A DNA stretch of 52,495 nt from a phage. A model generated the notes under the pieces. It saw nothing but the letters and a program-made list of their open reading frames with translations. It was not told the DNA's origin and searched no databases. The stretch is taken from the NCBI GenBank assembly GCA_028879995.1, contig GCA_028879995.1_4895.1, one strand, 5' to 3'. Shown here piece after piece: positions 3,301 through 52,451 of the stretch. The first letter of the stretch is position 1. Every line of letters begins with the position of its first letter. A program made the position numbers and the translations under genes.

Positions 3301-3329
3301 TTTACTTTCGGTTTACCTGGCTATATAAT
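3301..3329 (+). promoter_or_regulatory. sigma70-like promoter TTTACT-N17-TATAAT (scaffold/capsid operon)
   Basis: Exact -35 TTTACT, 17-nt spacer, -10 TATAAT right after the portal stop. Confidence 0.55.
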
Positions 3330-3337
3330 CCTTCATG

Positions 3338-3410
3338 TCAACCGCGCAACAGCCGGCCACGAGAGTCTGCAGGGCTCAGTGGATTTCGGATGGCTGGCTG
3401 CGCGGTTTGA
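3338..3410 (+). other. Long imperfect hairpin in the 5' leader of the scaffold/capsid transcript
   Basis: Arms tcaaCCGCGCAacagcc (3338-3354) and ggctggctGCGCGGtttga (3392-3410) pair over about 11 bp with bulges around a 35-nt loop. Confidence 0.35.
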
Positions 3411-3472
3411 CCAAAACCTGTTCAGAGCCCACTTGAGTGGATTGAGCCCCTCTCATATAGGATTGTAAAATT

Positions 3473-4186
3473 ATGGCACTTAAAACAGTTGTAACTGACC
3501 TTACCGAAGTTGATGAAGGCTTCCGTGGCCTGTATATCAAAGACGAAGCATCTGGTGCATTCCGTTTGGACGTTGAACCAGACGAAAAAACGCTGAAAGA
3601 ATTAGAAGACCTGCGCAAAGAAAAACAGCGTATGGAACAGCACACCAAAAAGCTTCTCGAAGAAAAGAAAAAAGAAGCTGAACGTGCTCGCCTGGCTGAA
3701 GAAGAACGCGCACGTCGTGAGCGTGATGTTGAATCTCTTGAGCGCTCTATCAAAGAGAAACATCAGGCTGAACTGGAACAGTATACTAATCGTCAGGCCC
3801 AGCTGCAAGCTCAGCTGGAAGCGCAAATGGTTGATAACCTGGCGCTGAACCTGGCTAACCAACTCTCTGACACCCCGGCACTTATTATGCCACACATCAA
3901 GGCCCGACTGCGCGCTCAGGAAATTGATGGTAAGTGGCGTACTACTGTCGTGGATGTTATGGGTAACCCGACTGCTACAACGCCAGATGAACTAGTGGAA
4001 CATATGCGCGCTGATAAGCAGTTTGCACCTCTTGTGCGTGGAACCAAGGCTGGCGGTGGCGGTGCCAACGGCGGCGGAGCTAATCCTGGTGGGAACGGCG
4101 GTGGCGAACAGCACACTTTCGGAGGCGGGGACGACCGCATAGCACGTGCTCGTGCTAAAATCCAAAACACACAATGGGGCAAATAA
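3473..4186 (+). CDS. Scaffolding protein
   Basis: 237 aa, highly charged coiled-coil-like E/K/R/Q-rich body, Gly-rich C-terminus; lies between portal and capsid gene. Confidence 0.6.
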   Translation: MALKTVVTDLTEVDEGFRGLYIKDEASGAFRLDVEPDEKTLKELEDLRKEKQRMEQHTKKLLEEKKKEAERARLAEEERARRERDVESLERSIKEKHQAELEQYTNRQAQLQAQLEAQMVDNLALNLANQLSDTPALIMPHIKARLRAQEIDGKWRTTVVDVMGNPTATTPDELVEHMRADKQFAPLVRGTKAGGGGANGGGANPGGNGGGEQHTFGGGDDRIARARAKIQNTQWGK

Positions 4187-4189
4187 TTT

Positions 4190-5167
4190 ATGTCACTGTA
4201 TATTTTTAACGAACAAGTACGTTCTACCGCCACCGAACTGGTTGACCAGGACGTACAGAAGTTTAACGAAGCTTCTGCAGGTACCCTTATTCTGGGTAAC
4301 CAGTACGTAATCGGTGATTACGTTGAGCAGGCAATGTGGCAGCTGGTTGACGGTATCGCTACCCGCCGTAATGCTTACGCTGGTACCAACAAAGTTGATG
4401 CGCAGACTCTGGGCCAGATTCTGGACCGCTCTGTTAAAATCGACGGCCGTGTTGGTCCTCTGAACATTACCGGTACTATGATGCGTCGCATCGGTGCAGG
4501 TGATACTGAACCAGCAGCTGTTGTTGCTGCACAGGCATCTGCTGCAATGTTCCAGGATTACCTGAACACCACTGCTGCATGTCTGGTAGCTGCTATCGGC
4601 GCAAACGCTGATGTTGTTCTGGACGTAACTTCAGGCTCCGGTGCTGCTGCAAACATCACCATGCAGAACCTGAACAAAGTCAACGCGAAGATGGGTGACC
4701 GTTCTCAGCAGATTCGTGCGTACATCATGCACTCTACTGCGTTCCACTCCCTCATCGACCAGGCTATCAACAACACAGAACACCTGTTCCAGATTGGTGA
4801 CCTGAACGTGTACAAAGACTTCCTGGGTCGTCGTTATGTCGTTTCCGACATCCCGGCTCTGGTTGATGGCGCCGGTGCTTCCGCTAAGTACCGCACTCTT
4901 GGTCTGACCCCGTCTGCTGCAATAGTTCAGGTCGGCGGCCTGTACGACATGGTTACCTCCGAGCAAACCGGTGGTGAAAACATCCTGCGTCAGATGCAGG
5001 GTGAATACGACTTCAACGTGTCGCTGAAAGGCTACAGCTGGGTCGGTCACAAAGCTGGTCAGTCTCCGACTGATGAAGACCTGGCTGCTCAGGCGTCCTG
5101 GTCTAAAGTTGCGACTTCCAACAAAGACACCGCTGGTGTTATGTTGCTGGCTAAGTCTGCAATCTAA
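4190..5167 (+). CDS. Major capsid protein
   Basis: 325 aa ORF directly after scaffold, followed by a strong intrinsic terminator (5190-5217). Confidence 0.7.
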   Translation: MSLYIFNEQVRSTATELVDQDVQKFNEASAGTLILGNQYVIGDYVEQAMWQLVDGIATRRNAYAGTNKVDAQTLGQILDRSVKIDGRVGPLNITGTMMRRIGAGDTEPAAVVAAQASAAMFQDYLNTTAACLVAAIGANADVVLDVTSGSGAAANITMQNLNKVNAKMGDRSQQIRAYIMHSTAFHSLIDQAINNTEHLFQIGDLNVYKDFLGRRYVVSDIPALVDGAGASAKYRTLGLTPSAAIVQVGGLYDMVTSEQTGGENILRQMQGEYDFNVSLKGYSWVGHKAGQSPTDEDLAAQASWSKVATSNKDTAGVMLLAKSAI

Positions 5168-5189
5168 CCCACAAACGGGACTAACAAAA

Positions 5190-5217
5190 GGCGAGCTGAC
5201 GAGCTCGCCTTTTTTTA
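5190..5217 (+). terminator. Intrinsic terminator after major capsid gene
   Basis: 8-bp GC-rich stem GGCGAGCT/AGCTCGCC, 4-nt loop, then T7. Confidence 0.75.
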
Positions 5218-5246
5218 TTTACACGTATAAAGTTCTGGTATATAAT
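5218..5246 (+). promoter_or_regulatory. sigma70-like promoter TTTACA-N17-TATAAT (neck/tail operon)
   Basis: Exact match to the recurring promoter pattern directly after the terminator. Confidence 0.6.
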
Positions 5247-5272
5247 CGGACTAAACTTGCTGGAGGCTTTCT

Positions 5273-5773
5273 ATGGCATACACACTTGTTGTGGAAGACG
5301 GTTCAATTGTTCCGGGTGCTAACTCGTATGTTAGCACTGCAGAAGTTGATGAGTTTATCACTAACGAAGGTATTCTCATTCAACCAGGAACTGACCCGTA
5401 CTACCAAGCTGCCAAAGCAGCTATCCGACTTGATAACCAGTTTAACTGGCTAGGTCGTAAGGTCAGCAAAACACAGAGCATGGCTTGGCCCCGTACTGGC
5501 CTCGGTGCATGTAATGTTGACATCGCGGAGTCTGTAATTCCGCGAGAAGTTAAGCTGGCACAGCTTTATATGATGGCCAGTGTATTGAGCTACGACGGTG
5601 AAGAAGGTGTGCGTAGCGACCAGGCTTTGCGCCGTAAGAAAGTTGGTAACCTGGAGATTGAATACTTCGACTCCAAATCAGGCGTTACCGGTGCAACTGA
5701 CCTTTGGACGTCAGACGTCAGGGCCATGCTCAAGCACCTTGTGGGTGCATCACTGAGAGCGCGGAGAGTATAA
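5273..5773 (+). CDS. Head-tail adaptor/connector-like protein
   Basis: 166 aa, first gene after the capsid terminator/promoter, RBS GGAGG; start of a translationally coupled neck operon. Confidence 0.35.
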   Translation: MAYTLVVEDGSIVPGANSYVSTAEVDEFITNEGILIQPGTDPYYQAAKAAIRLDNQFNWLGRKVSKTQSMAWPRTGLGACNVDIAESVIPREVKLAQLYMMASVLSYDGEEGVRSDQALRRKKVGNLEIEYFDSKSGVTGATDLWTSDVRAMLKHLVGASLRARRV

Positions 5774-6261
5774 TGATTCGTATACGCCTTGAACGTCGCG
5801 ACAAACAAAAGTTCGAGTTCACCTACCGTGCCTTTAAGTCGTTTGAAGGTCAAGGCGTATCAGTAGGTGTTCATCCAGAGCACAACAGACGTATAAATCC
5901 CAGGGACCGTATAACAAACGCCGAGCTAGCAATGGTGCATGAGTACGGTCTTAACGGCCTGCCAGAACGAAGCTTTCTTCGTAGTGCTGTTGGTGGCAGG
6001 GGTAAAGGCCGACAGGCAATAAACAAAGCTTTCCGCGATAATGTACCTGCTGTTCTCAGAGGAAGCATGACTGCGCATGAGCTTAACGACAAAATAGGTC
6101 GTATGCTTGTTGACGCTGTTCACGACAGAATGGACAGTGACGTGCCACCTCCTAACACCGAGCTGACAGAAGAACGCAAACGCGGGCCAGGTACACTTAG
6201 AGAATCTATGCAGTTGTATGATTCGATAGGGTACAAAGTTGGCAGAAACTGGAGGCTATAA
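5773..6261 (+). CDS. Neck/head-completion protein
   Basis: ATG 5773 overlaps upstream stop (TAATG); tool start 5704 is an upstream extension; 162 aa basic protein. Confidence 0.35.
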   Translation: MIRIRLERRDKQKFEFTYRAFKSFEGQGVSVGVHPEHNRRINPRDRITNAELAMVHEYGLNGLPERSFLRSAVGGRGKGRQAINKAFRDNVPAVLRGSMTAHELNDKIGRMLVDAVHDRMDSDVPPPNTELTEERKRGPGTLRESMQLYDSIGYKVGRNWRL

Positions 6262-6638
6262 TGCTCAAGATAACTTCGCTAATGAAGGATAAAACCTTTG
6301 TAGCATTAACAGATGTTCTTCTCCGAAATGATTCACGCTTACCAAACGGCGACTTCGAAGACGAATATACAGCTGCAAAGTATCTGTGTAACATTCAACC
6401 TGGTGCAGCTACTAACCAGCCTAACCTGTTGACTAAAGACGATGGCGAGCATGAGTTCCCACGTATTGCGATATACTGTGGACAAGAACTAAAGCTCGGA
6501 GACTTCGTTATATACGAAGACCAGCCATACCGTGTATTCCGTATCGACCCATGGAGTCGTCATGGCCACTACTACGTTACAGCAATTCTCCATAAAGGAC
6601 CTCAGGGAGCTCGTTCAGAAGCTTTTAACATTACCTGA
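6261..6638 (+). CDS. Hypothetical virion protein
   Basis: TAATG coupling to the upstream gene; 125 aa. Confidence 0.3.
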   Translation: MLKITSLMKDKTFVALTDVLLRNDSRLPNGDFEDEYTAAKYLCNIQPGAATNQPNLLTKDDGEHEFPRIAIYCGQELKLGDFVIYEDQPYRVFRIDPWSRHGHYYVTAILHKGPQGARSEAFNIT

Positions 6639-7089
6639 CGGTGCATGCATTATTGGTGAAGAGTCTGGTACAGTTGATGGTACGCCGTATGTTTATCTGC
6701 GTCCTGGTGATGCTTATGACTTCGGACCTCCTAGAACCAGACAAGGCTCTGACGGCTTTGAGTACGTCAGCAAGCCAATGATGACAGCTGTACGTATTAC
6801 AGCTGTCGGTAAGAATGCTGCTGAGCTAATGCGTAAGCTACACATAGCGCTGGGTAGTTCACCAGCTAAGCAGTTTAACCGTTTACGGCATTATGCAATA
6901 ACCAAAATATCGAAGATTGATAATGTCGGTGGTGCTATTGGTGCAGGCTATGCTCAGAAGTCAATGCTGACTGTTGATATTAGCTATGTGCATAAAGTTA
7001 AAATTGAGCAACCGTACATCTACAAGGTTGACATCACTTGTATGGATGACAACGGTAACAAAGCGACTGGTACAGTAGAGGAACCGTAA
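6562..7089 (+). CDS. Hypothetical virion protein (possible neck/tail terminator)
   Basis: First ATG at 6562; overlaps the previous ORF by 77 nt in another frame; start uncertain. Confidence 0.3.
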   Translation: MATTTLQQFSIKDLRELVQKLLTLPDGACIIGEESGTVDGTPYVYLRPGDAYDFGPPRTRQGSDGFEYVSKPMMTAVRITAVGKNAAELMRKLHIALGSSPAKQFNRLRHYAITKISKIDNVGGAIGAGYAQKSMLTVDISYVHKVKIEQPYIYKVDITCMDDNGNKATGTVEEP

Positions 7090-7712
7090 TGGCAACTGAA
7101 GTAGACCCGGAACTGCAAGCGCAGCTGGATAAGCTAACCACTGCTGTCCAGCTCATTCATGACTTCGGTATGTCAGGCGACCCAAACATCCCTAACCCGG
7201 AAGGCGGTGTCATACGCACGCTCGAAGGCATTAACGCTGCAATCAATGAAGCTATACCAAACTTTGAAAACGCTAACGAAGCTGCTATCCAGGCGCGTGC
7301 TGCTCGTGACGCGGCTATTGCAGCCAAAGAAGCTGCAGAAACGGCAGCTGAACAGGCCACAGTAGCTTCGACGTCAGCAATCTATGAGTACGGCAACGTT
7401 GCAAGTGCAGCTACCGTAACTATACCTGCTGCATCTAAAACAATTGTCAGCCTTACTCTTAACCAGCCAAACACCGTAATTAATATCGGTGGTGTATCTG
7501 ACCCGTCTACTGTTGCGCGTCAGATTACTATTGCTATTAAGCAAGGCACTGGTTCTAACAAGGTGACTTCTTGGGATCCAAGAATAAAATGGGCCAACAA
7601 CAGGAAGCCCGTTCTGTCATTCCTTGTGGGTTACACAGATGTTGTTACGTTGCTGACCTTTGACTCAGGCGCAACTTGGATGGGTTTCTTTAACGGTGGA
7701 TGGATTAAATAA
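7089..7712 (+). CDS. Hypothetical virion protein
   Basis: 207 aa, Ala/Glu-rich helical N-terminal half; TAATG coupling on both sides. Confidence 0.3.
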   Translation: MATEVDPELQAQLDKLTTAVQLIHDFGMSGDPNIPNPEGGVIRTLEGINAAINEAIPNFENANEAAIQARAARDAAIAAKEAAETAAEQATVASTSAIYEYGNVASAATVTIPAASKTIVSLTLNQPNTVINIGGVSDPSTVARQITIAIKQGTGSNKVTSWDPRIKWANNRKPVLSFLVGYTDVVTLLTFDSGATWMGFFNGGWIK

Positions 7713-10669: not shown

Positions 10670-10675
10670 CCACTA

Positions 10676-10704
10676 TTTACTTAACTGAGGCGCCAGCCTA
10701 TAAT
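10676..10704 (+). promoter_or_regulatory. sigma70-like promoter TTTACT-N17-TATAAT embedded in palindrome GCGCCAGC-N9-GCTGGCGC
   Basis: -10 TATAAT lies in the loop of an 8-bp inverted repeat (10690-10714). Confidence 0.55.
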
Positions 10705-10736
10705 AAGCTGGCGCACCCAATAAGAGGATTCTCCAG

Positions 10737-11375: not shown

Positions 11376-11386
11376 GGAGCTGATTG

Positions 11387-13516: not shown

Positions 13517-13541
13517 AAATTAATTAACTTTGCACTGGCCA

Positions 13542-13570
13542 TTTACTTGGTTAAACTTACTGAGTATAAT
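13542..13570 (+). promoter_or_regulatory. sigma70-like promoter TTTACT-N17-TATAAT flanked by inverted repeat GGCCATT/AATGGCC
   Basis: Promoter elements between 7-bp inverted repeats at 13537-13543 and 13568-13574. Confidence 0.55.
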
Positions 13571-13602
13571 GGCCGGAAAGTCCACCCAAGAGGTAAACAA
13601 AA

Positions 13603-14742: not shown

Positions 14743-14753
14743 GGAGCAGATCA

Positions 14754-24896: not shown

Positions 24897-24903
24897 CTAA
24901 TTG

Positions 24904-24944
24904 CTACCAGCAAGCTTGTGCAGTTGCTGGTAGTGTTTCTTTTA
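24904..24944 (+). terminator. Intrinsic terminator after tail-fiber chaperone genes
   Basis: 10-bp stem CTACCAGCAA/TTGCTGGTAG, 10-nt loop, then T-rich tgtttctttt. Confidence 0.7.
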
Positions 24945-24964
24945 CGCTTGAGTCGTGCTATAAT
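24936..24964 (+). promoter_or_regulatory. Promoter-like site for the lysis cassette (good -10 TATAAT, weak -35)
   Basis: TATAAT at 24959-24964; -35 region TTTCTT; overlaps the terminator tail. Confidence 0.35.
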
Positions 24965-29782: not shown

Positions 29783-29790
29783 AGTATAAC

Positions 29791-29804
29791 GGGGCCGAAG
29801 CCCC
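29791..29804 (-). other. GC hairpin GGGGCCGAAGCCCC (copy 1)
   Basis: Perfect 5-bp GC stem with CGAA loop between the ThyA-family gene stop and clamp-like gene start; identical 14-mer at 36236-36249. Confidence 0.5.
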
Positions 29805-29812
29805 GCTCCATC

Positions 29813-31701: not shown

Positions 31702-31730
31702 ATTATACCACATCACTCTCTAGTGGTAAA
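31702..31730 (-). promoter_or_regulatory. sigma70-like promoter (minus) TTTACC-N17-TATAAT
   Basis: Plus-strand attata at 31702-31707 and ggtaaa at 31725-31730; spacer contains CCAC...GTGG inverted repeat. Confidence 0.55.
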
Positions 31731-31749
31731 GCACTTTTTACGCTTCTGG

Positions 31750-31783
31750 TAAAAATAAAAAGGACCAGCGTTAACTGGTCCTT
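31750..31783 (-). terminator. Intrinsic terminator (minus strand) ending the transcript from the 32870 promoter
   Basis: 8-bp stem AGGACCAG/CTGGTCCT followed on the minus strand by TTTTATTTTT. Confidence 0.65.
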
Positions 31784-32353
31784 TTGGCAGGGTGGCGTAA
31801 GGAGATACAAGGCATCGTAACTATGCAACCAGGCAGCGCATATGAGATTGGCCAAAAGACTTACCATTTTAATCCCCGCGACGAGACGAAAAAGGAGGTG
31901 TCATCGAGTAGCCAATCACATATGCGTTACTTGCTGTGTGCTCTCACCGCGGAAAGCATAGAGCGTTGCACTTATCACACCGATGGAGTGGCAAAAGCAC
32001 ACAGCAAGTACAACCTTAGTTGTGGTGTCTTAGCACCTGAGTTATTGTGGATAACCTGCACCCGACGGGTGTCAAAAAGATACGCCAAAACACCACAACT
32101 AAAATTATGACCGCCGTCTACACCAGGCGCCTGGGGTCAAGGTAGCGAGCCAATACCCTTTTCAGCGTCGGAGGAATCGAACCTCACACATCACGGCTTT
32201 TACCAAATCTCGGTCAGCGAGCAGAATTGAACTGCATTCACTGGACACCCTCACTGTTTCAACACACCAGGCTTAATTGATTGTTGATAAGAAGAGAGAT
32301 GTAAGGATGTCCATTGAATGCACCTCCGTAGAGGTGCGTTCAGATCAGCGCTA

Positions 32354-32869: not shown

Positions 32870-32898
32870 AATATACGTCATTTAAAAGAGTGTGTAAA
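32870..32898 (-). promoter_or_regulatory. sigma70-like promoter (minus) TTTACA-N17-TATATT
   Basis: Upstream of the Lys/Ala/Glu-repeat protein gene. Confidence 0.45.
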
Positions 32899-34832: not shown

Positions 34833-34861
34833 ATTATACCACTTCCTTGTGGTGATGTATA
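34833..34861 (-). promoter_or_regulatory. sigma70-like promoter (minus), -10 TATAAT with upstream TGG, -35 TATACA
   Basis: Immediately upstream of the helicase ATG; spacer holds CCAC...GTGG inverted repeat. Confidence 0.45.
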
Positions 34862-36212: not shown

Positions 36213-36235
36213 GGTAGTCTCCGTATACGAAAATA

Positions 36236-36249
36236 GGGGCCGAAGCCCC
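36236..36249 (-). other. GC hairpin GGGGCCGAAGCCCC (copy 2)
   Basis: Identical 14-mer to 29791-29804; between SSB-like gene stop and dCMP deaminase start. Confidence 0.5.
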
Positions 36250-36273
36250 TATTGAATATCTACTCGGCAGGGA

Positions 36274-36891: not shown

Positions 36892-36921
36892 ATTATACGC
36901 CACTTTTTATCATGGCGTAAA
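36892..36921 (-). promoter_or_regulatory. sigma70-like promoter (minus) TTTACG-N18-TATAAT
   Basis: Upstream of the SSB-like gene; spacer holds CGCCA...TGGCG inverted repeat. Confidence 0.5.
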
Positions 36922-38068: not shown

Positions 38069-38098
38069 ATTATACACCACTTACATGGGGTAAGTACA
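38069..38098 (-). promoter_or_regulatory. sigma70-like promoter (minus) TGTACT-N18-TATAAT
   Basis: TGTACT-type -35 variant. Confidence 0.4.
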
Positions 38099-38548: not shown

Positions 38549-38596
38549 AGTACTCTCCAGGGAGGAAGACTGGCGGGCTTGCACCCGCCTAAGTTA

Positions 38597-39584: not shown

Positions 39585-39613
39585 ATTATAGCACTAGTGA
39601 GTGGTGAAGTACA
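39585..39613 (-). promoter_or_regulatory. sigma70-like promoter (minus) TGTACT-N17-TATAAT
   Basis: Upstream of gene 38597-39502; spacer contains perfect palindrome CACTAGTG. Confidence 0.45.
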
Positions 39614-40639: not shown

Positions 40640-40645
40640 GTTTAA

Positions 40646-41095: not shown

Positions 41096-41366
41096 CAGTT
41101 GTTTCCTCAGGTTGCATGTGCATAGTTGCACCAATTAGTAGACAATAATTATTGAACATTGTACGTAGTGCCTGGCCCGCAACAATATCCGTTACGTCTA
41201 TTATACCACTTTTAGTGGTGACGCGTAAAGCTTTTTCTTTCTTTGTTTTCTCCACAAATGCAATGCTGATGATTTCTTCCGCATGAATTACGTGGATGGT
41301 ACCTGCAAACTCACCAGCCTTAGCTGGTGCCTGGTACACTAACGACATAGACGGTTGGTTACTCAC
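40998..41366 (-). CDS. Hypothetical protein (overlaps next gene by about 98 nt; contains a promoter-like site)
   Basis: GTG 41366 with RBS AGGAGT; 122 aa; C-terminal part overlaps 40646-41095 out of frame. Confidence 0.3.
   Translation of the reverse strand: MSNQPSMSLVYQAPAKAGEFAGTIHVIHAEEIISIAFVEKTKKEKALRVTTKSGIIDVTDIVAGQALRTMFNNYCLLIGATMHMQPEETTDGIEPTRTGIDGHGTAVRQAGESEPLDGTSES
41200..41229 (-). promoter_or_regulatory. sigma70-like promoter (minus) TTTACG-N18-TATAAT located inside ORF 40998-41366
   Basis: Internal promoter-like site. Confidence 0.4.
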
Positions 41367-41376
41367 TTAATTACTC

Positions 41377-41814: not shown

Positions 41815-41845
41815 TGGTTGTATCTCCTTAACAGAATGTAAGTCT

Positions 41846-41874
41846 ATTATGTATATAAAGGAGGGGAAAGTAAA
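41846..41874 (-). promoter_or_regulatory. sigma70-like promoter (minus) TTTACT-N17-CATAAT, leftward arm of divergent pair
   Basis: Upstream of gene 41377-41814; overlaps direct repeat AAGTCTATT. Confidence 0.45.
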
Positions 41875-41907
41875 TAGATATAAATGTATAAAATACATAA
41901 AAGTCTA

Positions 41908-41937
41908 TTTACTCTGGTTTAATAACGTGTATATAAT
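41908..41937 (+). promoter_or_regulatory. sigma70-like promoter TTTACT-N18-TATAAT, rightward arm of divergent pair
   Basis: Upstream of 41968 gene and primase; -35 overlaps second copy of AAGTCTATT. Confidence 0.5.
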
Positions 41938-41967
41938 GAGAGCCTCACAAACAAGAGGAGAGACTCA

Positions 41968-44809: not shown

Positions 44810-44820
44810 GTAAGTAAATC

Positions 44821-44861
44821 AAGGGCTTGGGTAATTGTAAAAATCCTAAGCCCTTATTTTT
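44821..44861 (+). terminator. Intrinsic terminator after primase-helicase gene
   Basis: Stem AAGGGCTT...AAGCCCTT followed by ATTTTTT. Confidence 0.65.
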
Positions 44862-45209
44862 TAAGCTTATTTTACAAACTGATTAATATTTAAACTATAA
44901 TTAAATATATGGGCTATAAGAGTATGATTTTATTACTCTTTTACTAACCATAATATATGGGCTCCTTATAAAAGATTAAGGGGGTAAAAAAGGGGGTACA
45001 AGTACCGGATAAAAGGGGGGATATATTTATTTATTATTATTATTATTATTATATATTATTAATTATATTAGAAGTAATAAAAACAGCTACTTAGAGGCGT
45101 CTATATGTATGATCCGGTTTATCTCTTTATTAATATCAGAACCGGATGAAAAAAATTTACGCCGGCGAAAAATAATAAAAAACCGGACTGATAAATAAAT
45201 CTGTAGACG
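44862..45209. repeat. AT-rich repeat-dense noncoding region (candidate replication origin)
   Basis: Two ATATATGGGCT copies, purine-rich AAGGGGGTA repeats (44977-45021), (TTA)n microsatellite near 45027-45051, inverted repeat ATCCGGTT/AACCGGAT (45112-45148); no ORF. Confidence 0.45.
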
Positions 45210-45238
45210 TTTACACTATAAAAAAGATGTGTTACAAT
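45210..45238 (+). promoter_or_regulatory. sigma70-like promoter TTTACA-N17-TACAAT
   Basis: Upstream of the Hjc-like resolvase gene. Confidence 0.5.
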
Positions 45239-45292
45239 ATTTATCAATGTTGCTGATTACCAAAACTTTGAATTGTATACGAGGCTGAATAA

Positions 45293-45906: not shown

Positions 45907-46082
45907 AAGTAATCTCCATCAACCAGAAACTCAAACAATTGGTTGTAAACGTTGCAACCTTTAGCGAAAGAGCTTTCAGCAGGTTTACCGTCGCGGACAA
46001 TCATCATATACTCACCGCCATGGATGTCCACCCAGTATTGCATGCCACCTTTGACCGGATTACGTTGCAGAAATTTAAACAT
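45903..46082 (-). CDS. Hypothetical small protein (59 aa, below the ORF-track cutoff)
   Basis: ATG 46082 with RBS AGGAGT, TAATG coupling; read by eye as MFKFLQRNPVKGG...FLVDGDYL. Confidence 0.3.
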   Translation of the reverse strand: MFKFLQRNPVKGGMQYWVDIHGGEYMMIVRDGKPAESSFAKGCNVYNQLFEFLVDGDYL

Positions 46083-46327
46083 TATTTACTCCTGATTCCA
46101 AGTTTATTCAATAACCAAATTGTCATGTCAACCCATGTTAACGGTACAGTTTTCGGGGGTTGATAATCCCAGCAGCTTGCAGTTCTTTGTATTTCTGCTT
46201 GGCGCCGCTCCGCTTCGCGTAATACCGCATCGTCAGAAGTGCCGGCAGAAAAAAGATCGGTAACACCAGATAAATCGCGTTGATTAACACGTCGAGCAAT
46301 GTCATATAAATCATCCTTAGAAAACAT
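46082..46327 (-). CDS. Hypothetical small protein
   Basis: 81 aa; ATG 46327. Confidence 0.35.
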   Translation of the reverse strand: MFSKDDLYDIARRVNQRDLSGVTDLFSAGTSDDAVLREAERRQAEIQRTASCWDYQPPKTVPLTWVDMTIWLLNKLGIRSK

Positions 46328-46503
46328 AAGCCAATACCATAAAAATTATCAGAAAGATCCCAACCAGCTTCCTCATAGCCCGACCTTCAGCATATGCAGG
46401 ATTCACAACAGAATACTCAACAACATGTTTACAGCGGACCATAAGGCCTCCACTTGTGGGTTAATTCAATCATGAGGACTTTTGGCAAATCCTCATTGTT
46501 GAA

Positions 46504-46704
46504 TCACTCCATCATTACCTGAACTATTATTATACACTCTTTATTGAAGCGGGTAAACACCTTTCCTCCATTTGTGCGTTTAGCCCCAGATTTTAGAGCT
46601 GACTGGCACCAGACATGCCACTCCTCAACTGTCAAGAATTTTTGTTCAGCTTTGGGTGGCAATCCATTGGCAAGGTCTACCGTAGTAAATTTGACTAGTG
46701 GCAT
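46504..46704 (-). CDS. Hypothetical small protein
   Basis: 66 aa; ATG 46704 overlapping upstream stop; contains a promoter-like site 46529-46557. Confidence 0.3.
   Translation of the reverse strand: MPLVKFTTVDLANGLPPKAEQKFLTVEEWHVWCQSALKSGAKRTNGGKVFTRFNKECIIIVQVMME
46529..46557 (-). promoter_or_regulatory. sigma70-like promoter (minus) TTTACC-N17-TATAAT inside small ORF 46504-46704
   Basis: Internal promoter-like site. Confidence 0.4.
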
Positions 46705-47093
46705 CACTTGACCTCAAATTTTGACTCGTCATATTCCGGATCAGTCACGTCCCGGGTAGCACAATTTTTGATTGCCTCCCAGTAACGTTGGGCATCATCA
46801 CCATCGACATAAACTGTCCAGTGGCCGTAACCACCTTCAAATCTGTCCCAGGCTTGTTCCCAGACTTTGCCATCTTCCAGCTTGTACCAAGTTGGACGAC
46901 TGTCAAACTCGCGGATTGGATGGTACCCCATCAAAGGATTCATCAGGTCAATAATGTCTTCCCGACTAATCTCCTGGTTCTCCCACAACACCGTCATGAA
47001 TTGCTCAAACTTGAAGGCGTTTGGCAGAACTTTGATGACTTCACCATCACGATATACGGTATAGGTGCCATCTTCGCATTTTGCACTGTACAT
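46704..47093 (-). CDS. Hypothetical acidic Trp-rich protein
   Basis: ATG 47093 preceded by conserved leader and hairpin cassette; 129 aa. Confidence 0.4.
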   Translation of the reverse strand: MYSAKCEDGTYTVYRDGEVIKVLPNAFKFEQFMTVLWENQEISREDIIDLMNPLMGYHPIREFDSRPTWYKLEDGKVWEQAWDRFEGGYGHWTVYVDGDDAQRYWEAIKNCATRDVTDPEYDESKFEVK

Positions 47094-47162
47094 GTTTCTC
47101 TCTCTTGTTGTGAATAATTTCAATCATGAACTATCACAATTTTGGATAGTTCATTGTTGAAA
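47094..47162 (-). promoter_or_regulatory. Conserved leader plus upstream hairpin cassette, copy A
   Basis: Perfect 8-bp hairpin GAACTATC/GATAGTTC (47128-47152) abutting a leader whose 16-nt core is identical at 47109-47124 and 47773-47788. Confidence 0.5.
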
Positions 47163-47336
47163 CTATGCTAACTTTGTTGCGATCTGAATTGTCAGCCTGA
47201 AATCTTCCATCAAGTTATCAAACTCTTTGGAACCACCAACAGCATCAGATATTTGATCTTTCACAATTTGGGCATTTGATTCCAGTAATTCAATCAGGTG
47301 CGCCAATTCGTCTTCAGTCAATTTCAGATCTTTCAT
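47163..47336 (-). CDS. Small acidic helical protein, paralog family member 3 (MKDLKLT...)
   Basis: ATG 47336 (ATGA overlap with upstream stop); 57 aa; N-terminus MKDLKLTEDE shared with two other small ORFs. Confidence 0.4.
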   Translation of the reverse strand: MKDLKLTEDELAHLIELLESNAQIVKDQISDAVGGSKEFDNLMEDFRLTIQIATKLA

Positions 47337-47591
47337 AATGCATCCACCCAAGCCATAACTTTTGCCAGTCTTACAACGTCTTCATGGTCTCGCTCGCCAT
47401 CAGAAAATTCGCTGGCGATGATACCCATAATTGACGCCAGATTCATGTTGATGATGTATGAGTGTTCCCGCACTTCATCAATTCCTGAATCTATCACCAA
47501 TTCCGCAAATTCCTGCGAACCTTCATCCCATTCAGCCCAATACTGCTCAGCATAAAAGTCCAGTTCTTTTTTTCATCTCAATATCAGTCAT
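47333..47591 (-). pseudogene. Small acidic protein gene interrupted at an A7 homopolymer (frameshift)
   Basis: ATG 47591 with RBS GAGGAG gives MTDIEMKK then stop; with A6 instead of A7 (plus 47567-47573) the frame stays open to TGA 47333-47335. Confidence 0.35.
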
Positions 47592-47596
47592 TTTGA

Positions 47597-47755
47597 TTAC
47601 TCCTCAGAACCTGAAAATTTGTCGTCAATGGCTTCAACAATATAATCAAGAGTTGAAGTGTGAGAACTATCAGAAAAAGTGCCCATCTTCTCTAACTCAA
47701 TCATCATATCCCGCAAGGCCATCGCCTGGTCTTTGGTCAGTTTGATTTTAAGCAT
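47597..47755 (-). CDS. Small acidic helical protein, paralog family member 2 (MLKIKLT...)
   Basis: ATG 47755 preceded by conserved leader/hairpin cassette; 52 aa. Confidence 0.4.
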   Translation of the reverse strand: MLKIKLTKDQAMALRDMMIELEKMGTFSDSSHTSTLDYIVEAIDDKFSGSEE

Positions 47756-47819
47756 GTTTCTCTCCTGTTGATTGTGAATAATTTCAATTGATGGCACTAC
47801 TTGAGTGCCATCTCAAAAA
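47756..47819 (-). promoter_or_regulatory. Conserved leader plus upstream hairpin cassette, copy B
   Basis: Perfect 9-bp hairpin GATGGCACT/AGTGCCATC (47790-47812) abutting the same conserved leader. Confidence 0.5.
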
Positions 47820-48386
47820 TTACTCAGTTTCTTGTTCTTCAATTTCAGGTTTTTCTTCAGTCTTAGGTTTTTCGCCTGTTACTGATTTGCCCTCAGTCAC
47901 TTTACCAGATTTTACATCATTACGGTAATAGGACATATAGGATTGGACAACACGTTTTGCCCTAATATCATCCGCTTCCATCCCACAGGCTTTCATGGCA
48001 TCAGCCAGCGCCAATTTGGAATCTTCTTTGTCCATCAAATTGTAATCCTTGAATACTGCATAGCAGGTATCTTTGGTTGACGGACCGGATGAAGTTTTGC
48101 GGGTGCCACCTGCAGATGCACGTGATGCCGCAACTTTGACCTCTTCAACTTCCAGTTGGTTAAGCTCATCAAACAAGGCTTTCACCAGCACTTCTTTTGA
48201 GTCTTTGACACTTACAGAACTTTCATCATTAAGGGACTTGATCATCTTAATGATTTGGTTATTGGCAAAGTACTGCAGGCTATCCATCTGCACTACAATA
48301 GTCCCAAGACTTTCAGTAGTCAGACCAGATTTTACAGACTCGACAGAAAAGGCGGAAGTCAGGTAAACGTAGTTAGTAGCAGTCAT
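47820..48386 (-). CDS. Hypothetical protein
   Basis: 188 aa, Lys/Glu-rich C-terminal tail; ATG 48386. Confidence 0.45.
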   Translation of the reverse strand: MTATNYVYLTSAFSVESVKSGLTTESLGTIVVQMDSLQYFANNQIIKMIKSLNDESSVSVKDSKEVLVKALFDELNQLEVEEVKVAASRASAGGTRKTSSGPSTKDTCYAVFKDYNLMDKEDSKLALADAMKACGMEADDIRAKRVVQSYMSYYRNDVKSGKVTEGKSVTGEKPKTEEKPEIEEQETE

Positions 48387-48481
48387 TTTGATGTATCCTC
48401 GTCAATAGAATTTTGGTAAGCGCCAATCCCTGGCAAGTAAGTCCAAACATGACAACTTTTGTCAAGCTGTCATGATTGAAA

Positions 48482-48661
48482 TCACTTCAATTTGTTAAGT
48501 ATTTTGGTCAATAGCTCAACTCTTTCTTCCTGGTCAGTAGGGTCAAAGTTTTCAATTGACTCCTTCCAGTCCTCCAGCAGTTCCTTTTCATTAAATATTG
48601 AAATGTCAAGAAATTCAACCAATAACTCAACTTCTTTTTTAGTCAATTTCAAATCTTTCAT
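48482..48661 (-). CDS. Small acidic helical protein, paralog family member 1 (MKDLKLT..., 59 aa, below the ORF-track cutoff)
   Basis: ATG 48661 with RBS AGAGGG; read by eye as MKDLKLTKKEVELLVEFLDISIFNEKELLEDWKESIENFDPTDQEERVELLTKILNKLK. Confidence 0.4.
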   Translation of the reverse strand: MKDLKLTKKEVELLVEFLDISIFNEKELLEDWKESIENFDPTDQEERVELLTKILNKLK

Positions 48662-48675
48662 CTTGTATGACCCTC

Positions 48676-48825
48676 TTACCCTTGATATTTGACTACTTGC
48701 GACTGGATGAAATCAACACAATCTTCCACGTCCATTGATTCAAAATCTGGAACTGGTCCATTATTAATGTTGACACACCATAGCCCTTCATTACAATCAT
48801 ACCAAAGCGTATAGTTGTCTTTCAT
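48676..48825 (-). CDS. Hypothetical small protein (MKDNYTLWYDCNEG...)
   Basis: ATG 48825 with RBS AGGAGT; 49 aa with four Cys; first gene of the leftward small-gene cluster. Confidence 0.3.
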   Translation of the reverse strand: MKDNYTLWYDCNEGLWCVNINNGPVPDFESMDVEDCVDFIQSQVVKYQG

Positions 48826-49042
48826 AATAGTTACTCCTGCTATTAGTTTCCAGGCGTGGCTACTGCTTCCAATAGCCACTAGTTGAAACTATTACCAGCG
48901 TTACTATCAACAAGAAACATGTTACCAAATTGTTAAAGAGCGGTCTGGTACTATTCGACCAGGTAAAGTTGATGTTTGCGCATCTTGACGACACGCGCCA
49001 GACAAGACGCTTGACACATTCATCATTCGTCTTGATGTAATA

Positions 49043-49071
49043 ATTATAGGCCAGTCAATCAATGTTGTACA
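49043..49071 (-). promoter_or_regulatory. sigma70-like promoter (minus) TGTACA-N17-TATAAT for the leftward small-gene cluster
   Basis: Plus-strand attata 49043-49048 and tgtaca 49066-49071. Confidence 0.45.
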
Positions 49072-49182
49072 TAAAAGAATTGCAAGTTTATGCAAGTTTT
49101 TAGAAATGATAATCACTTGCGATTGAGAGTGGTTCTCGTATGCAATTGATATAGTTTCGCATGTAATTACTCACTTCAAAAT

Positions 49183-49240
49183 GGTCGGCAGGGGTTATAA
49201 TCACATAGGGGTGCCACTTAAAGGAGCCGGCGAAATTATT
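49183..49240. repeat. Approx. 58-nt GC-rich repeat unit R1
   Basis: Shares with R2 the pattern GGT.CGGC.GGGG-TAAT-C.CA-GGGGTGC.AC.T-AGGAGCC.GC.AAATT.TTTAT. Confidence 0.5.
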
Positions 49241-49358
49241 TATAAAAATATAATTTCAATCTGAATTATAGACGCTTTGTGTTATAACGGCCGAAGTAGT
49301 TCATACGGTAATTGTATCAATCGCAATAGTTACCAAAGTAATCATTTCAATTGAAATA

Positions 49359-49416
49359 GGTGCGGCGGGGGGTAATTTCGCAGGGGTGCTACCTGCCAGG
49401 AGCCAGCAAAATTTTT
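49359..49416. repeat. Approx. 58-nt GC-rich repeat unit R2
   Basis: Second copy about 176 bp downstream of R1, same orientation. Confidence 0.5.
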
Positions 49417-49566
49417 TATTTTTTGGTATTTTCTCCTTATCAGGACCAATCATCATCAGAGTAATACGGCAGGAGCTAACCTTTTGCTTAACACAATAAT
49501 AAGTGAAGCCCCTCTAAAAATTTTTTATATTTTTCGGAAATTGTGTAGACACTCACTAAAAAGTGG

Positions 49567-49595
49567 TGTACTTTCTCTCCTCCACGCGCTATCAT
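49567..49595 (+). promoter_or_regulatory. sigma70-like promoter TGTACT-N17-TATCAT for the rightward DHFR/kinase operon
   Basis: About 40 nt upstream of the first plus-strand gene. Confidence 0.4.
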
Positions 49596-49645
49596 TAATG
49601 TGAATCATCAAACGGCCTCACGGTCTCCTACTTGTGGGTAACATT

Positions 49646-50122
49646 ATGAAAATTGTTCAATTAGAGCCATATCCGCCTCAATTGGCTATCGTTTGTAGCG
49701 AAAAAGAGCACGAAGAGCTCCAAAAACTGATGGATTTGCCTGATTTTGGCAACTGGAATGACCGGGAAACGCGTAATGCATCTACTTTTACGTTCACTCG
49801 CGTTAACTATCCGTACCTGTTAATTGTCGTCGAACTGTATCACCCGGACGACCTGAAGTACAACACCATTTCCCACGAAGGCATTCACGTAATGTCATCG
49901 CTGATGAACTATGTAGGGCTTAAATACGACCCAGAAAACGATGAATGGTACGCATATCAGCATGATTTCATCGTAAATGCCATTTGTAAGGCCCATGACG
50001 AGTATATAGAGCGTCAAAAAACGCCAAAAACTAAGCCAAAAATCGAAACAGGTAACCATCCTGCAATACTGCCACAAGACGTAATGAACTCGCTTTTGAC
50101 TGACACTACTGGGGACTTTTAG
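49646..50122 (+). CDS. Hypothetical protein with HExxH motif (possible small zinc metallopeptidase-like protein)
   Basis: ATG 49646 (tool start GTG 49634); single HEGIH motif; first gene after plus promoter 49567-49595. Confidence 0.3.
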   Translation: MKIVQLEPYPPQLAIVCSEKEHEELQKLMDLPDFGNWNDRETRNASTFTFTRVNYPYLLIVVELYHPDDLKYNTISHEGIHVMSSLMNYVGLKYDPENDEWYAYQHDFIVNAICKAHDEYIERQKTPKTKPKIETGNHPAILPQDVMNSLLTDTTGDF

Positions 50123-50797
50123 GTGATTAATATAATCTTCGCAATGGGCCAAAATGGGGAATTCGGGTTATCTCCGGAGTTTATGAAGCATCAGGTTGAC
50201 TCGTGTAAGACCATGGATGAGGTTCGTGCGCTTCCTAAATCGGGTCTCCCTTGGAAATGTCCGTCAGATATGCTCTTTTTCAGGACTATGACTAATTCAA
50301 TTGCGTCAGAACCAGGCTATAATGCGTATCAGCAACTACGTGGACAGTTCCCAAATGACCAGTTGCGAAACATGATAGCAGATGTAACTGTAAAAATGGT
50401 CGGGCATAGTGTATTGTTAGCCGGTCGTAATACGTATATGACTATGAGTCTGCCTATGTCAGCCCACAGAATACTGCTGCCTGTATCTCGTCAGATTATG
50501 GCTTCAGAAGGCTACAATAATTTGGGTGAGATGGCAGCAGACCTTGAATCCAGAGGTACTGACGTCTGGATTGTAGGCGGTGCCGAGTTGATACTTTCGG
50601 CCCTTGAAGAGCATGCAAAAGACTTACTCCGTATCGACAACATGTTTATCAGTACAATCAAGCAATCAGGTCCAAGTGATATTTTAATGGATTGTAGCAA
50701 ATTAATGATGTACATTGATAGCGACTTCACTTATAATGATGAATATGTTGATAACAAACAAGTTCTGATACAACGGTACAGGAGTTTACACAAATGA
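50123..50797 (+). CDS. Dihydrofolate reductase-like protein
   Basis: GTG 50123; DHFR-like N-terminus MINIIFAMGQNGEFG, LPWKCPSDMLFFRTMT (compare E. coli MPWNLPADLAWFKRNT), IVGGAELILSAL; contains a long insertion. Confidence 0.55.
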   Translation: MINIIFAMGQNGEFGLSPEFMKHQVDSCKTMDEVRALPKSGLPWKCPSDMLFFRTMTNSIASEPGYNAYQQLRGQFPNDQLRNMIADVTVKMVGHSVLLAGRNTYMTMSLPMSAHRILLPVSRQIMASEGYNNLGEMAADLESRGTDVWIVGGAELILSALEEHAKDLLRIDNMFISTIKQSGPSDILMDCSKLMMYIDSDFTYNDEYVDNKQVLIQRYRSLHK

Positions 50798-51300
50798 ACA
50801 TCATAATCGAGGGGCCCGACAATGCTGGTAAAAGTACACTTATTGAGTTCCTTAAATCTCATACTGGCCGCAGTGTTATTCATAATACTGTTGATAAAGA
50901 CCCCGAATCGGTCATGGCTAAACAGGCCAAAGAAAACGCGTTGGAGGGCGATTGCATTTATGACCGTAGCGCTGTTATATCTGAGTATATCTATTGCCTG
51001 GTTCTTCAACGTACGCCTGTCATCAATATTAATGTATCACATGTAGCAGATATGTGTGACAACGCCATCGTTATCTTTTGTATGCCGCCTGTTGAAAAGG
51101 TACTGGCAACTACAAAAGACGAGATGCCTGGCGTTGTGGAAAATCTTGAGGCGTTATACAATCAGTATGACAACCTCATTGACGAGCTGGTTATGATGAG
51201 TAAGCAGTTCTTCATTTACGACTGGACTGTTGAAGAAGATGGTCCTGAAGCAGCTCTCGAATACATCAACGAACGTATTAATAAGGAGTGGAACAAATGA
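50794..51300 (+). CDS. Deoxynucleoside monophosphate kinase (thymidylate-kinase-like P-loop kinase)
   Basis: N-terminal P-loop IIIEGPDNAGKSTL; 168 aa; ATGA coupling to the DHFR-like gene. Confidence 0.55.
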   Translation: MNIIIEGPDNAGKSTLIEFLKSHTGRSVIHNTVDKDPESVMAKQAKENALEGDCIYDRSAVISEYIYCLVLQRTPVININVSHVADMCDNAIVIFCMPPVEKVLATTKDEMPGVVENLEALYNQYDNLIDELVMMSKQFFIYDWTVEEDGPEAALEYINERINKEWNK

Positions 51301-52016
51301 GCCCAGTATACAATACCTCAGTCACGCTGTCCGCAACCGTAAGCGGCGTCAACAAGACAGTTACTGTGGGTTCAACTAACCCAAACCTGACAGGCGAAGA
51401 CCTGCTGCGCCTGGCCAAACGTGCACTTGAAGATAACGAAGTAACTGGTACTGAAGGCGTTAACATTGAAATTAACGTCGAAGGATGTCCGCACAGCATC
51501 AGTATTGCTACCTCTTCATTGCCTGAAGACGAGACTCGTGAACAGCTGGAAATTAAAAAGTTCAACGATGAGCTGGAATATCGCACAGGTGAGATGTTCA
51601 GCAGTGCACTAAACTGGTACTTGTGCAAGGCTTCAAACTACGCTGGCGCTCCTATGTCAGACCGTATGTTAGCTGATATGTCAGCACGTGAAATTGCTAA
51701 AGGCTGGGCGCATGTACAGATGCTGCAAGAGCATATCTGCAAGCTGGAAAGCTGCAATAAAGACGCGTCTGAGCTTATTACTGCCTATAAGCGACAGATT
51801 AACGACCTGCAGCAACTGATGGGTAAACGCGCTGAAGAATATGAGGCTGAGATTCGCAGTCTTAATGGTACAGCTGTTGCTAACAACCGTGCTTTCAGCG
51901 AAGAGCGTAAAGCGCTTATCGCCCAGCGTGACGCTGAAAAACGTCGTGCAGACGACCTGGCAGACCGTCTTAACTTTATCCGTAAGCACATGGATGCTAT
52001 GGAAGGGGTAATCTGA
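51297..52016 (+). CDS. Hypothetical protein
   Basis: ATG 51297 with RBS AAGGAG (tool start 51288 is GTG); 239 aa, coiled-coil-like C-terminal half. Confidence 0.4.
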   Translation: MSPVYNTSVTLSATVSGVNKTVTVGSTNPNLTGEDLLRLAKRALEDNEVTGTEGVNIEINVEGCPHSISIATSSLPEDETREQLEIKKFNDELEYRTGEMFSSALNWYLCKASNYAGAPMSDRMLADMSAREIAKGWAHVQMLQEHICKLESCNKDASELITAYKRQINDLQQLMGKRAEEYEAEIRSLNGTAVANNRAFSEERKALIAQRDAEKRRADDLADRLNFIRKHMDAMEGVI

Positions 52017-52306
52017 TGGACCTGTTCGATATGGTCGAACATCCTGAAGTAAACGGCTTGGCGGAAGCTAAGCCTTTTAACTGGGATGAATTCGTAGCAG
52101 GCAAACCTGCTGTAACCCACAACGGGCAGATTGCATATTACGGAGGCCATAGCGAACATCCGATGTGCACTCACCTGTACAACGCTATCACAACCATATC
52201 CGACGAAAACGTTATTAAGTACGGAAAAGAGGTAATGCCTTTTCTTGTAGATGAACGCGGTTACTTCGAAGGTAAATGGTTCCCGTTTCTGGTAGAAATG
52301 GCCTAA
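52016..52306 (+). CDS. Hypothetical protein
   Basis: 96 aa; ATG overlaps upstream stop. Confidence 0.35.
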   Translation: MDLFDMVEHPEVNGLAEAKPFNWDEFVAGKPAVTHNGQIAYYGGHSEHPMCTHLYNAITTISDENVIKYGKEVMPFLVDERGYFEGKWFPFLVEMA

Positions 52307-52422
52307 AAACCGGATAAATATAAAGGCGTCTAAGCTAGTTCTTCATCTGTATAAGCTACTTATTCGCCTTTCTACTGTAGACTTTCTCATCATCTCTCTA
52401 GACACTTCATTTTTATATTCTG

Positions 52423-52451
52423 TTTACTTACTTCGCGTAACTCGTTATAAT
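52423..52451 (+). promoter_or_regulatory. sigma70-like promoter TTTACT-N17-TATAAT
   Basis: Exact consensus upstream of the gene starting at 52484. Confidence 0.55.

Follow-up and report, generated by a model that had tools for sequence, protein, structure and literature searches.

Probable host sigma-70 promoters in Salmonella phage BP63, many of them fused to predicted stem-loops in read-through RNA

We analysed a phage contig of 52,495 nucleotides (GCA_028879995.1_4895.1, hereafter the window), which over its first 20 kb matches Salmonella phage BP63 (Rosemountvirus; KM366099/NC_031250, 52,437 bp) at 100% identity, and describe here a family of conserved promoter-like sites spread over both of its strands. 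These sites are likely to be promoters of the host sigma-70 RNA polymerase, and many of those lying inside gene arrays appear to be fused to stem-loops that fold in RNA reading through from upstream, in an arrangement resembling the PeSL elements of T4-type phages. A member of the family would comprise an A-rich upstream stretch, a -35 box of the form T-N-T-A-C-N (TTTACW), a 17-18 bp spacer sometimes ending in TGn, and a consensus TATAAT, and about half of the array-internal promoters would be joined to a stem-loop placed just upstream, in the spacer, around the -10 hexamer or around the whole promoter. Such a stem-loop would form only in RNA reading through from the upstream gene and would most likely attenuate, end, process or stabilise the upstream transcript; the embedded promoter would restart transcription, the promoters splitting long gene arrays into restartable transcription units. 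The window is the BP63 record in rotated form (record position − 7406 = window position, window 45089 being record position 1), and seven of the sites, cited throughout by window position (45210, 5218, 10676, 31702, 32870, 34833 and 36892), carry the GenBank feature 'promoter, similar to TTGACA(N15-18)TATAAT', so that part of the promoter finding is already on record.

The motif is strongly over-represented. TTTAC-N18-TATAAT with at most one mismatch occurs 17 times against 1.30 expected, a count reached in 0 of 100 shuffles, and a spacer longer by one base yields 4 further matches, each in a promoter context. Exact matches to T[TG]TAC-N18/19-TATAAT number 14 against 0.165 expected (block shuffles, largest value 2), and 10 of these 14 fall in non-coding DNA, which makes up 7.5% of the window (binomial P = 4e-9). 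A generic TTGACA/TATAAT scan performed at chance level (30 versus 24.5, 23 versus 20.6 and 37 versus 29.5), and the signal is therefore specific to the TTTAC-type family rather than to promoter-like sequence at large. The first-pass annotation of this DNA had proposed nine plus-strand and ten minus-strand intergenic sites of sigma-70-like pattern; the same 19 were recovered, all co-oriented with the next gene and separated from its start by 26-143 nt, with the exception of 49043 (Table 1). Their intergenic position holds for most exact matches but not throughout, as 41200 and 46529 lie inside annotated open reading frames (ORFs) and 31702 extends into the 3' end of a doubtful 54-aa ORF. This ORF (gp58, 31703-31867, minus strand), which shares its DNA with a conserved promoter and terminator and lacks a homologue in three of four diverged relatives, is probably not a gene.

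Spacers measure 17 or 18 bp at all listed sites, and the -10 hexamer is an exact TATAAT at 14 sites and one base off at the remainder, one-base variants being found at 49567, 45210, 41846 and 32870. Compared with TTGACA, TTTACN boxes agree at four to five of six positions (TTTACA at five) and TGTACN or TATACN boxes at three to four. The 25 nt 5' of the -35 hexamer are 68% AT, against 54% for the genome, with an A-run at positions -10 to -5 relative to the hexamer, and in the replication-cluster promoters AAAAAGTG immediately precedes the -35 hexamer, an A-rich stretch compatible with the proximal UP-element consensus. Three matches were set aside or doubted: 46529 and 44871 (spacer 19), an exact and a near match restricted to the BP63 lineage, are doubtful as promoters, and 50709, inside a DHFR-like gene, was not counted, its TATAAT being a conserved Tyr-Asn codon pair and its -35 box being lost in three lineages.

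Footprinting against diverged relatives supports the same sites. We compared the window with the Loughboroughvirus phages ZCSE2, SE4 and AEV23, the KE26/KM/fHy-Eco03 group, Erwinia phage SOI901, SE13, yarpen and one metagenomic contig, whose proteins are mostly 30-95% identical to those of BP63; an IMG/VR search with the helicase returned five close relatives, its other 37 loci being too distant. At 18 sites, five to nine diverged relatives keep both hexamers and the distance between them unchanged, and the spacers and flanks drift. Across some 18 promoters and up to nine lineages the -35 box reads T-N-T-A-C, TTGAC being never seen; T is constant at position 3, and position 2 varies freely among T, G and A, with TTTAC, TGTAC and TATAC interchanging at orthologous promoters. 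The subset of TGTAC boxes singled out in the first reading of the sequence is real, and belongs to this exchange. Each related genome holds 7-10 exact copies of the motif, compared with 2 copies in total in the 37 loci from distant phages, which have no more than the helicase in common.

Because of this enrichment, intergenic placement, co-orientation and invariance of the hexamers amid diverging spacers, the identification of the sites as sigma-70 holoenzyme promoters is, at the level of inference from sequence, well supported. The box itself is compatible with such use: TTTACA serves as a -35 element for unmodified holoenzyme, for example in lac and lacUV5, the latter being TTTACA-N18-TATAAT. 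No RNA polymerase, sigma factor, anti-sigma factor or helix-turn-helix protein was found among 40 unknown ORFs searched against Pfam and PHROGs, some 30 of which are still without a function, and the large ORFs annotated in the record are all structural or replicative, with no polymerase or sigma factor among them. The sole transcription-related match among the 40 is a DksA/TraR-type zinc-finger protein (Table 1). The 'putative sigma factor' of ZCSE2 (MK673511.1, 23915-24805 of that locus) was considered and rejected, as it is the orthologue of the BP63 Sak4-like AAA_24 ATPase and hence a public misannotation. The authors describing the sister phage S144, too, detected no polymerase, and their prediction gave 18 host promoters (PMC7432712). 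The earlier proposal that the family works on host RNA polymerase is accordingly favoured by enrichment, position, orientation, footprinting and the lack of a recognisable phage polymerase or sigma factor, and transcription would be expected to start about 7 nt after the -10 hexamer.

Several of these promoters coincide with inverted repeats, of which the first-pass annotation had given three by position, beside CCAC...GTGG spacers. Of the three, two are exact, GCGCCAGC/GCTGGCGC at 10690-10697/10707-10714, an 8-bp stem with the -10 hexamer of site 10676 in its loop, and GGCCATT/AATGGCC at 13537/13568; the third, CACTAGTG, lies at 39592-39599 and not at 39591-39598, and is best regarded as a chance occurrence rather than an operator, since it is lost in yarpen, SOI901 and fHy-Eco03 and folds with a z of about +0.5 across lineages. 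Relative to dinucleotide shuffles, folding z scores in BP63 are -4.45 at 10676, -5.14 at 13542, -4.28 at 36892, -1.92 at 34833 and -1.29 at 38069, and folding better than shuffles is limited to 10676, 13542, 36892, 38069, 41200 and, weakly, 34833. Averaged across lineages, z is -4.9 at 13542, -4.3 at 10676, -3.9 at 38069, -2.7 at 36892 and -1.9 at 34833, with all others near zero, so that hairpin propensity is kept across lineages at these five promoters only. At 38069 the spacer hairpin is stronger in the relatives (CCCCA/TGGGG or CCCCT/AGGGG) and at 41200 the spacer repeat CCACT/AGTGG is confined to the BP63 lineage.

What is conserved at the five hairpins is pairing rather than sequence. 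At 10676 the arms read GCGCCAGC/GCTGGCGC in BP63, SE13, ZCSE2 and AEV23, TGCCAGC/GCTGGCA in KE26 and KM, GTGCCTGC/GCAGGCAC in fHy-Eco03 and AGCCAG/CTGGCT in SOI901, giving four distinct and fully paired, that is compensatory, stem sequences (pairs were counted by hand, as the MAFFT alignment misregistered the 5' arms). At 34833 the arms are ACCAC/GTGGT, ATCAC/GTGAT or CGCGC/GCGCG, depending on the lineage, around a conserved A(A/T)GGAA loop. In the 17-pair helix at 13542, 95% of alignment cells pair, compared with 25-42% when partners are slid, and at 36892 the figures are 100% and 12-62%. At 13542 (6 lineages) and 36892, RNA of the sense strand folds more stably than that of the antisense strand in every lineage; single-sided arm changes pass through G·U, which at these two sites is tolerated on the sense strand only. 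A DNA cruciform is unlikely given the short arms, the long loops and the sense-strand G·T mismatches, though less clearly so at 10676, 34833 and 38069.

Of the 13 promoters inside co-directional gene arrays, 9 have a stem-loop, against 0 of the 5 that start an operon (41846, 41908, 45210, 49043 and 49567; Fisher two-sided 0.029), the former count including three upstream hairpins with T-rich tails (5186-5213, 24903-24934 and 31785-31758). Two of these three were scored terminator-like by the scan, and 24903-24934, which precedes the holin promoter, was folded only. At 5186-5213 the T-run of the intrinsic terminator continues into the TTTACA-17-TATAAT of the adaptor promoter (5218-5246). Stem-loops found only at promoters that receive read-through are the distribution expected if they act on RNA from upstream.

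A number of points weigh against this combination of host promoters and read-through stem-loops. The internal and operon-start classes were set post hoc, after the data had been seen. Covariation statistics are weak, shuffles matching the observed score in about 20% of trials at 13542 and 36892, and these controls are indecisive because only 5-6 distinct sequences are available; at three of the five hairpins, the comparison of strands gives mixed results. The five promoter-overlapping stem-loops have no U-tract and so are not canonical intrinsic terminators. If every promoter class is used by unmodified sigma-70 holoenzyme, the delay of late genes is left without an account, and we found no start-site, RNA 3'-end or polymerase-binding data in the literature for Rosemountvirus or Loughboroughvirus. 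The roles given to the stem-loops are to be read as inferred from pairing, position and distribution.

Among other roles for the hairpins, translational gating of the T4 lysozyme (gene e) type is doubtful yet survives best. At some promoters, the sequence just 5' of the transcription start would pair with the ribosome-binding site, such that read-through RNA is untranslatable and only promoter-initiated RNA is translated. In silico and with assumed starts, promoter-initiated RNA leaves the ribosome-binding site more accessible than read-through RNA does in almost every lineage, its unpaired probability rising by +0.21 to +0.33 at TerS, +0.16 to +0.78 at the helicase and +0.07 to +0.36 at the holin (at least +0.24 in seven of eight lineages). 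At 52423, the 3' end of the spacer (CTCGT) together with TAATCC is complementary to GGATTAACGAGG, ribosome-binding site included, and the complementarity of C(C/T)TCGT beside the -10 hexamer to (A/G)CGAGG is kept in four lineages, with U·G in SOI901. Longer RNAs are, however, generally less accessible, the values were computed without a shuffle control, and the folds used assumed starts and no coding sequence past the ATG. Moreover, the two strongest hairpins show no effect (-0.02 to +0.12 at the Ig-domain gene, Ig30, and -0.07 to +0.14 at the sheath). Pairing with the ribosome-binding site, likewise free of a shuffle control, is predicted in most lineages for TerS, holin, helicase, adaptor and hyp66, and not for Ig, sheath or SSB.

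The promoters also divide by their discriminators. The six structural and lysis promoters are GC-rich in the six bases after the -10 hexamer (3.0-5.5 G+C, lineage averages) and the thirteen others AT-rich (0.75-3.2 G+C; Mann-Whitney P = 0.0009), 'TATAATC' being present at 4 of 6 structural/lysis promoters versus 0 of 12 others (P = 0.005). Examples of the GC-rich class are 52423, 13542 and 5218, and of the AT-rich class 34833, 36892 and 49567. In general, promoters with GC-rich discriminators are inhibited by DksA/ppGpp and TraR and those with AT-rich ones activated, and the role of phage TraR-like proteins is termed unclear in reviews (PMC9304144). The discriminator split, taken with this known preference, makes the idea of a role for the BP63 TraR-like protein specific. 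One extension, to which we give little credence, would combine the stem-loops and the two discriminator classes into a switch that depends on transcription history and needs no phage sigma factor. RNA from upstream would fold so as to cover the internal promoter, and at TerS, holin and helicase the ribosome-binding site as well, leaving only promoter-proximal transcripts stable and translated, and the TraR-like protein would shift host polymerase between the AT-rich (replication) and GC-rich (structural/lysis) promoters, thereby timing the late genes.

Operator-type regulation, suggested for the palindromes in the first reading of the sequence, is not supported and is an unlikely explanation. 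It would have a dimeric DNA-binding protein of phage or host bind the dyads and repress or activate the promoter, and would suit dyads centred on promoter cores, the CCA...TGG common to several arms, and even the observed co-variation, which can also arise at half-sites when the specificity of a dimer shifts. Yet arm sequence and spacing (4 to ~28 nt) vary among promoters of one genome, it is the pairs and not the arm sequences that persist across relatives, and the G·T mismatches at 13542 and 36892 fall on the sense strand, in line with the sense-fold bias. Nor was a repressor candidate recognised: no helix-turn-helix or other DNA-binding domain was found in any unknown ORF searched, and the DksA/TraR family binds RNA polymerase, not DNA. 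Palindromes are furthermore missing from the operon-start promoters, where a switch would be expected.

Two features beside the promoters would also suit protein binding. A separate AT-rich palindrome at 41875-41907 (ATGTATAAAATACAT) lies between the divergent promoters 41846 (minus strand) and 41908 (plus strand); the versions in relatives differ in sequence yet are palindromic (AGTAT-AAA-ATACT in ZCSE2), and it could be a shared control site of the pair. TAGACRC boxes are concentrated beside some promoters in non-coding DNA, 6 of 12 copies falling in that 7.5% of the window, and those preceding the TerS, hyp14, RusA and hyp59 promoters are conserved in relatives. As a genome-wide motif they were rejected, TAGACRC showing no overall enrichment (12 versus 12.75) and KTAGAC being depleted, and they are left as a lead; we regard them as better candidates for protein binding than the palindromes.

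A reading of the T-N-T-A-C box as the target of a phage-modified polymerase or of an unrecognised phage specificity factor, in the manner of T4 MotA/AsiA or Alt modification, appears improbable. The constancy of position 3, the freedom of position 2 and the absence of TTGAC would be accommodated by it, as would the reserve of phage ORFs without known function, and T4, which modifies polymerase, carries the same TTTACW box in its early promoters. On the other side stand the activity of TTTACA with unmodified holoenzyme noted above and the combination of 17-18 bp spacing with a consensus -10 hexamer, which is classical sigma-70 geometry. In addition, 49043 has the same box. This site is conserved in 4 of 5 lineages, fHy-Eco03 having a 3699-bp terminal repeat, and is a probable early leftward promoter; as probably the earliest of the family, it must fire before phage proteins are made unless a factor is injected.

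Table 1. Predicted promoters and associated features of the window. Sites are named by window position; hexamers are given as -35, spacer length, -10.
Site	Feature	Coordinates	Strand	Details
52423	Promoter, small-terminase-position gene (hyp19, TerS)	52423..52451	+	TTTACT-17-TATAAT, discriminator CCCGAC; kept in 4 lineages
3301	Promoter, scaffold/major capsid operon	3301..3329	+	TTTACT-17-TATAAT, then 143-nt leader
5218	Terminator-promoter cassette, head-tail adaptor	5186..5246	+	GenBank-annotated promoter
10676	Promoter, Ig-domain protein/major tail gene	10676..10714	+	TTTACT-17-TATAAT
13542	Promoter, sheath	13535..13576	+	TTTACT-17-TATAAT (13542-13570), entirely within 17-pair hairpin
24935	Promoter, holin	24903..24964	+	weak -35 GTTTCT, spacer 18, extended -10 TGC-TATAAT (24959-24964); terminator-like hairpin upstream
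41908	Promoter, hyp75/primase	41908..41937	+	TTTACT-18-TATAAT; TGTACA in relatives; back-to-back divergent with 41846
45210	Promoter, RusA	45210..45238	+	TTTACA-17-TACAAT, GTAGAC abutting -35; GenBank-annotated
49567	Promoter, hyp14-hyp18 nucleotide-metabolism operon	49567..49595	+	AAAAAGTGG-TGTACT-17-TATCAT; 5 lineages
31702	Terminator (31785-31758), then promoter (31730-31702)	31702..31785	-	TTTACC-17-TATAAT, extended -10 TGG; GenBank-annotated
32870	Promoter, hyp59	32870..32898	-	AAAAAAGGTG-TTTACA-17-TATATT; TGTACA in relatives; GenBank-annotated
34833	Promoter, helicase	34833..34861	-	TATACA-17-TATAAT; spacer hairpin ACCAC-AAGGAA-GTGGT
36892	Promoter, SSB	36892..36921	-	TTTACG-18-TATAAT; spacer hairpin TACGCCAT...GTGGCGTA
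38069	Promoter, hyp66/Sak4	38069..38098	-	TGTACT-18-TATAAT; spacer hairpin
39585	Promoter, hyp68	39585..39613	-	TGTACT-17-TATAAT; includes CACTAGTG (39592-39599)
41200	Promoter 5' of hyp72, inside hyp73 ORF	41200..41229	-	TTTACG-18-TATAAT
41846	Promoter, head of minus-strand replication cluster	41846..41874	-	TTTACT-17-CATAAT; conserved, on the opposite strand of the hyp75 upstream region
46529	Exact motif match inside hyp06	46529..46557	-	not conserved elsewhere; doubtful promoter
49043	Leftward promoter, small genes of terminal-repeat region	49043..49071	-	TGTACA-17-TATAAT, 217 nt before hyp13
	DksA/TraR-type zinc-finger protein, 74 aa	26305..26529	-	
	TAGACRC copies in non-coding DNA	32924, 45097, 49269, 49546, 52326, 52399		GTAGAC at 45203 abuts RusA -35

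Other non-coding elements were noted along the window, in which tRNA and Rfam searches gave no matches. The leader at 3330-3472 (plus strand), which separates the scaffold promoter from the start codon of the scaffold gene, varies less across four lineages than the flanking coding DNA and folds to -44 kcal/mol; it has no Rfam match, and covariation is absent because it is nearly invariant. As a leader it may regulate the head operon in cis. An identical hairpin, GGGGCTTCGGCCCC (UUCG tetraloop), occurs at 29783-29812 and 36213-36273 (minus strand) in promoter-less gaps of the replication cluster, and a third GC-rich hairpin lies at 38549-38596. The ORF-less gap of 486 nt at 31868-32353 (minus strand) holds a tRNA-like GGTTCGATTCC motif in which ARAGORN finds no tRNA; at the same position Erwinia phage SOI901 has tRNA-Gln and tRNA-Pro (5192-5352 of its locus), and the gap may represent decayed tRNA genes or another RNA.

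The probable early, terminal-repeat region has no internal TnTAC promoter except the unconserved match at 46529. Between its small genes lie four related intergenic elements on the minus strand (46443-46503, 47094-47162, 47756-47819 and 48387-48481), each with a hairpin of ~20 bp that is interrupted by a small internal loop (-22 to -31 kcal/mol, z -3.9 to -6.8) and has ATTGAAATTATTCACAA after it; they are similar to the sites processed by RNase III between the early genes of T7. The non-coding region of 820 nt at 48826-49645, between 49043 (minus strand) and 49567 (plus strand), is near the inner terminal-repeat boundary deduced from fHy-Eco03. Two GC-rich units that resemble each other (~49200-49270 and ~49370-49440), both with an AT-run after them, were seen in it by eye and missed by the repeat tool. 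The window differs from the BP63 record by 57 additional bases at 45032-45088 and by one additional base near 47333-47591, which disrupts the frame of the small early ORF gp09 and is either a sequencing difference or a real frameshift. Both the start of the GenBank record and the 57 extra bases fall in an AT-rich region of 483 nt (44810-45292) with a (TTA)n run, G5 boxes and numerous imperfect inverted repeats, which is probably a genome end or a packaging or origin region.

No part of this finding amounts to a new kind of system, and it is largely ordinary though solid. Its value lies in a promoter map backed by conservation (18 sites, compared with 7 in GenBank) for a group of phages applied in the biocontrol of Salmonella and E. 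coli, in the correction of the ZCSE2 'sigma factor' label, and in a discriminator split that gives a concrete test of phage TraR-like protein function. The layout being known from T4-type phages, the novelty is modest and consists of covarying embedded stem-loops outside T4-like phages and of the discriminator split.

Several known systems share individual features with the BP63 promoters. MerR promoters use spacers of 19-20 bp and share one operator; BP63 likewise has dyads between -35 and -10, but with 17-18 bp spacers and dyads that are all different. Hairpin promoters of N4 need its giant virion RNA polymerase and have 3-nt loops, whereas the BP63 hairpins occur without either. LacUV5 and the T4 early promoters share the -35 variant, the spacing and the consensus -10 hexamer, and T4 early promoters the A-rich upstream element as well; the BP63 family, whose activity is predicted from sequence, differs in its free -35 position 2. 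T4 gene e, soc and gene 49 have late promoters, TATAAATA boxes read by gp55, inside hairpins that sequester the ribosome-binding site. BP63 would likewise embed promoters in hairpins formed by read-through RNA only, with such pairing predicted at TerS, holin and helicase, although its two strongest hairpins (10676 and 13542) leave the ribosome-binding site untouched.

The closest likeness is to the PeSLs, in which strong sigma-70-like promoters with an AT-rich upstream region are combined with a stem-loop located between -35 and -10, overlapping either box, or upstream; PeSLs were proposed to attenuate upstream transcription, and one tested stem-loop is a strong terminator (Arbiol et al. 2010, PMC2839356). 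The promoter consensus given for T4/PST reads TTTACW-N17-TAYWAT (Comeau et al. 2014, PMC4122927). BP63 shares the AT-rich upstream region, the TTTACW box and all positional subclasses of the stem-loop (PMC2839356), the terminator activity of its stem-loops being predicted. It differs in being a 52-kb Rosemountvirus and not T4-like, in having promoters also in replication and structural modules rather than among early genes only, and in the sequence of its copies: PeSL cassettes are conserved over ~100 bp, and BP63 copies agree at a mean of 22 of 76 non-hexamer positions (29%; best pair 36 of 76, 47%). That the cassettes are mobile recombination modules mediating gene shuffling, as in the strict PeSL sense, is very unlikely in spite of the matching architecture, an additional 49-aa ORF between the helicase promoter and the helicase gene of ZCSE2, and HNH genes beside the adaptor promoter in ZCSE2 and fHy-Eco03, since this low identity is joined by promoters that flank conserved core genes and not variable ORFans, 0 of 4 lineage-variable genes standing first after a promoter. 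A layout tied to core genes and kept by compensatory evolution argues for a regulatory role and not for recombination alone. The composite promoter/stem-loop layout would thereby extend from T4-type phages to an unrelated 52-kb myovirus, in which it appears to work as PeSLs do while standing outside their mobile-cassette family.

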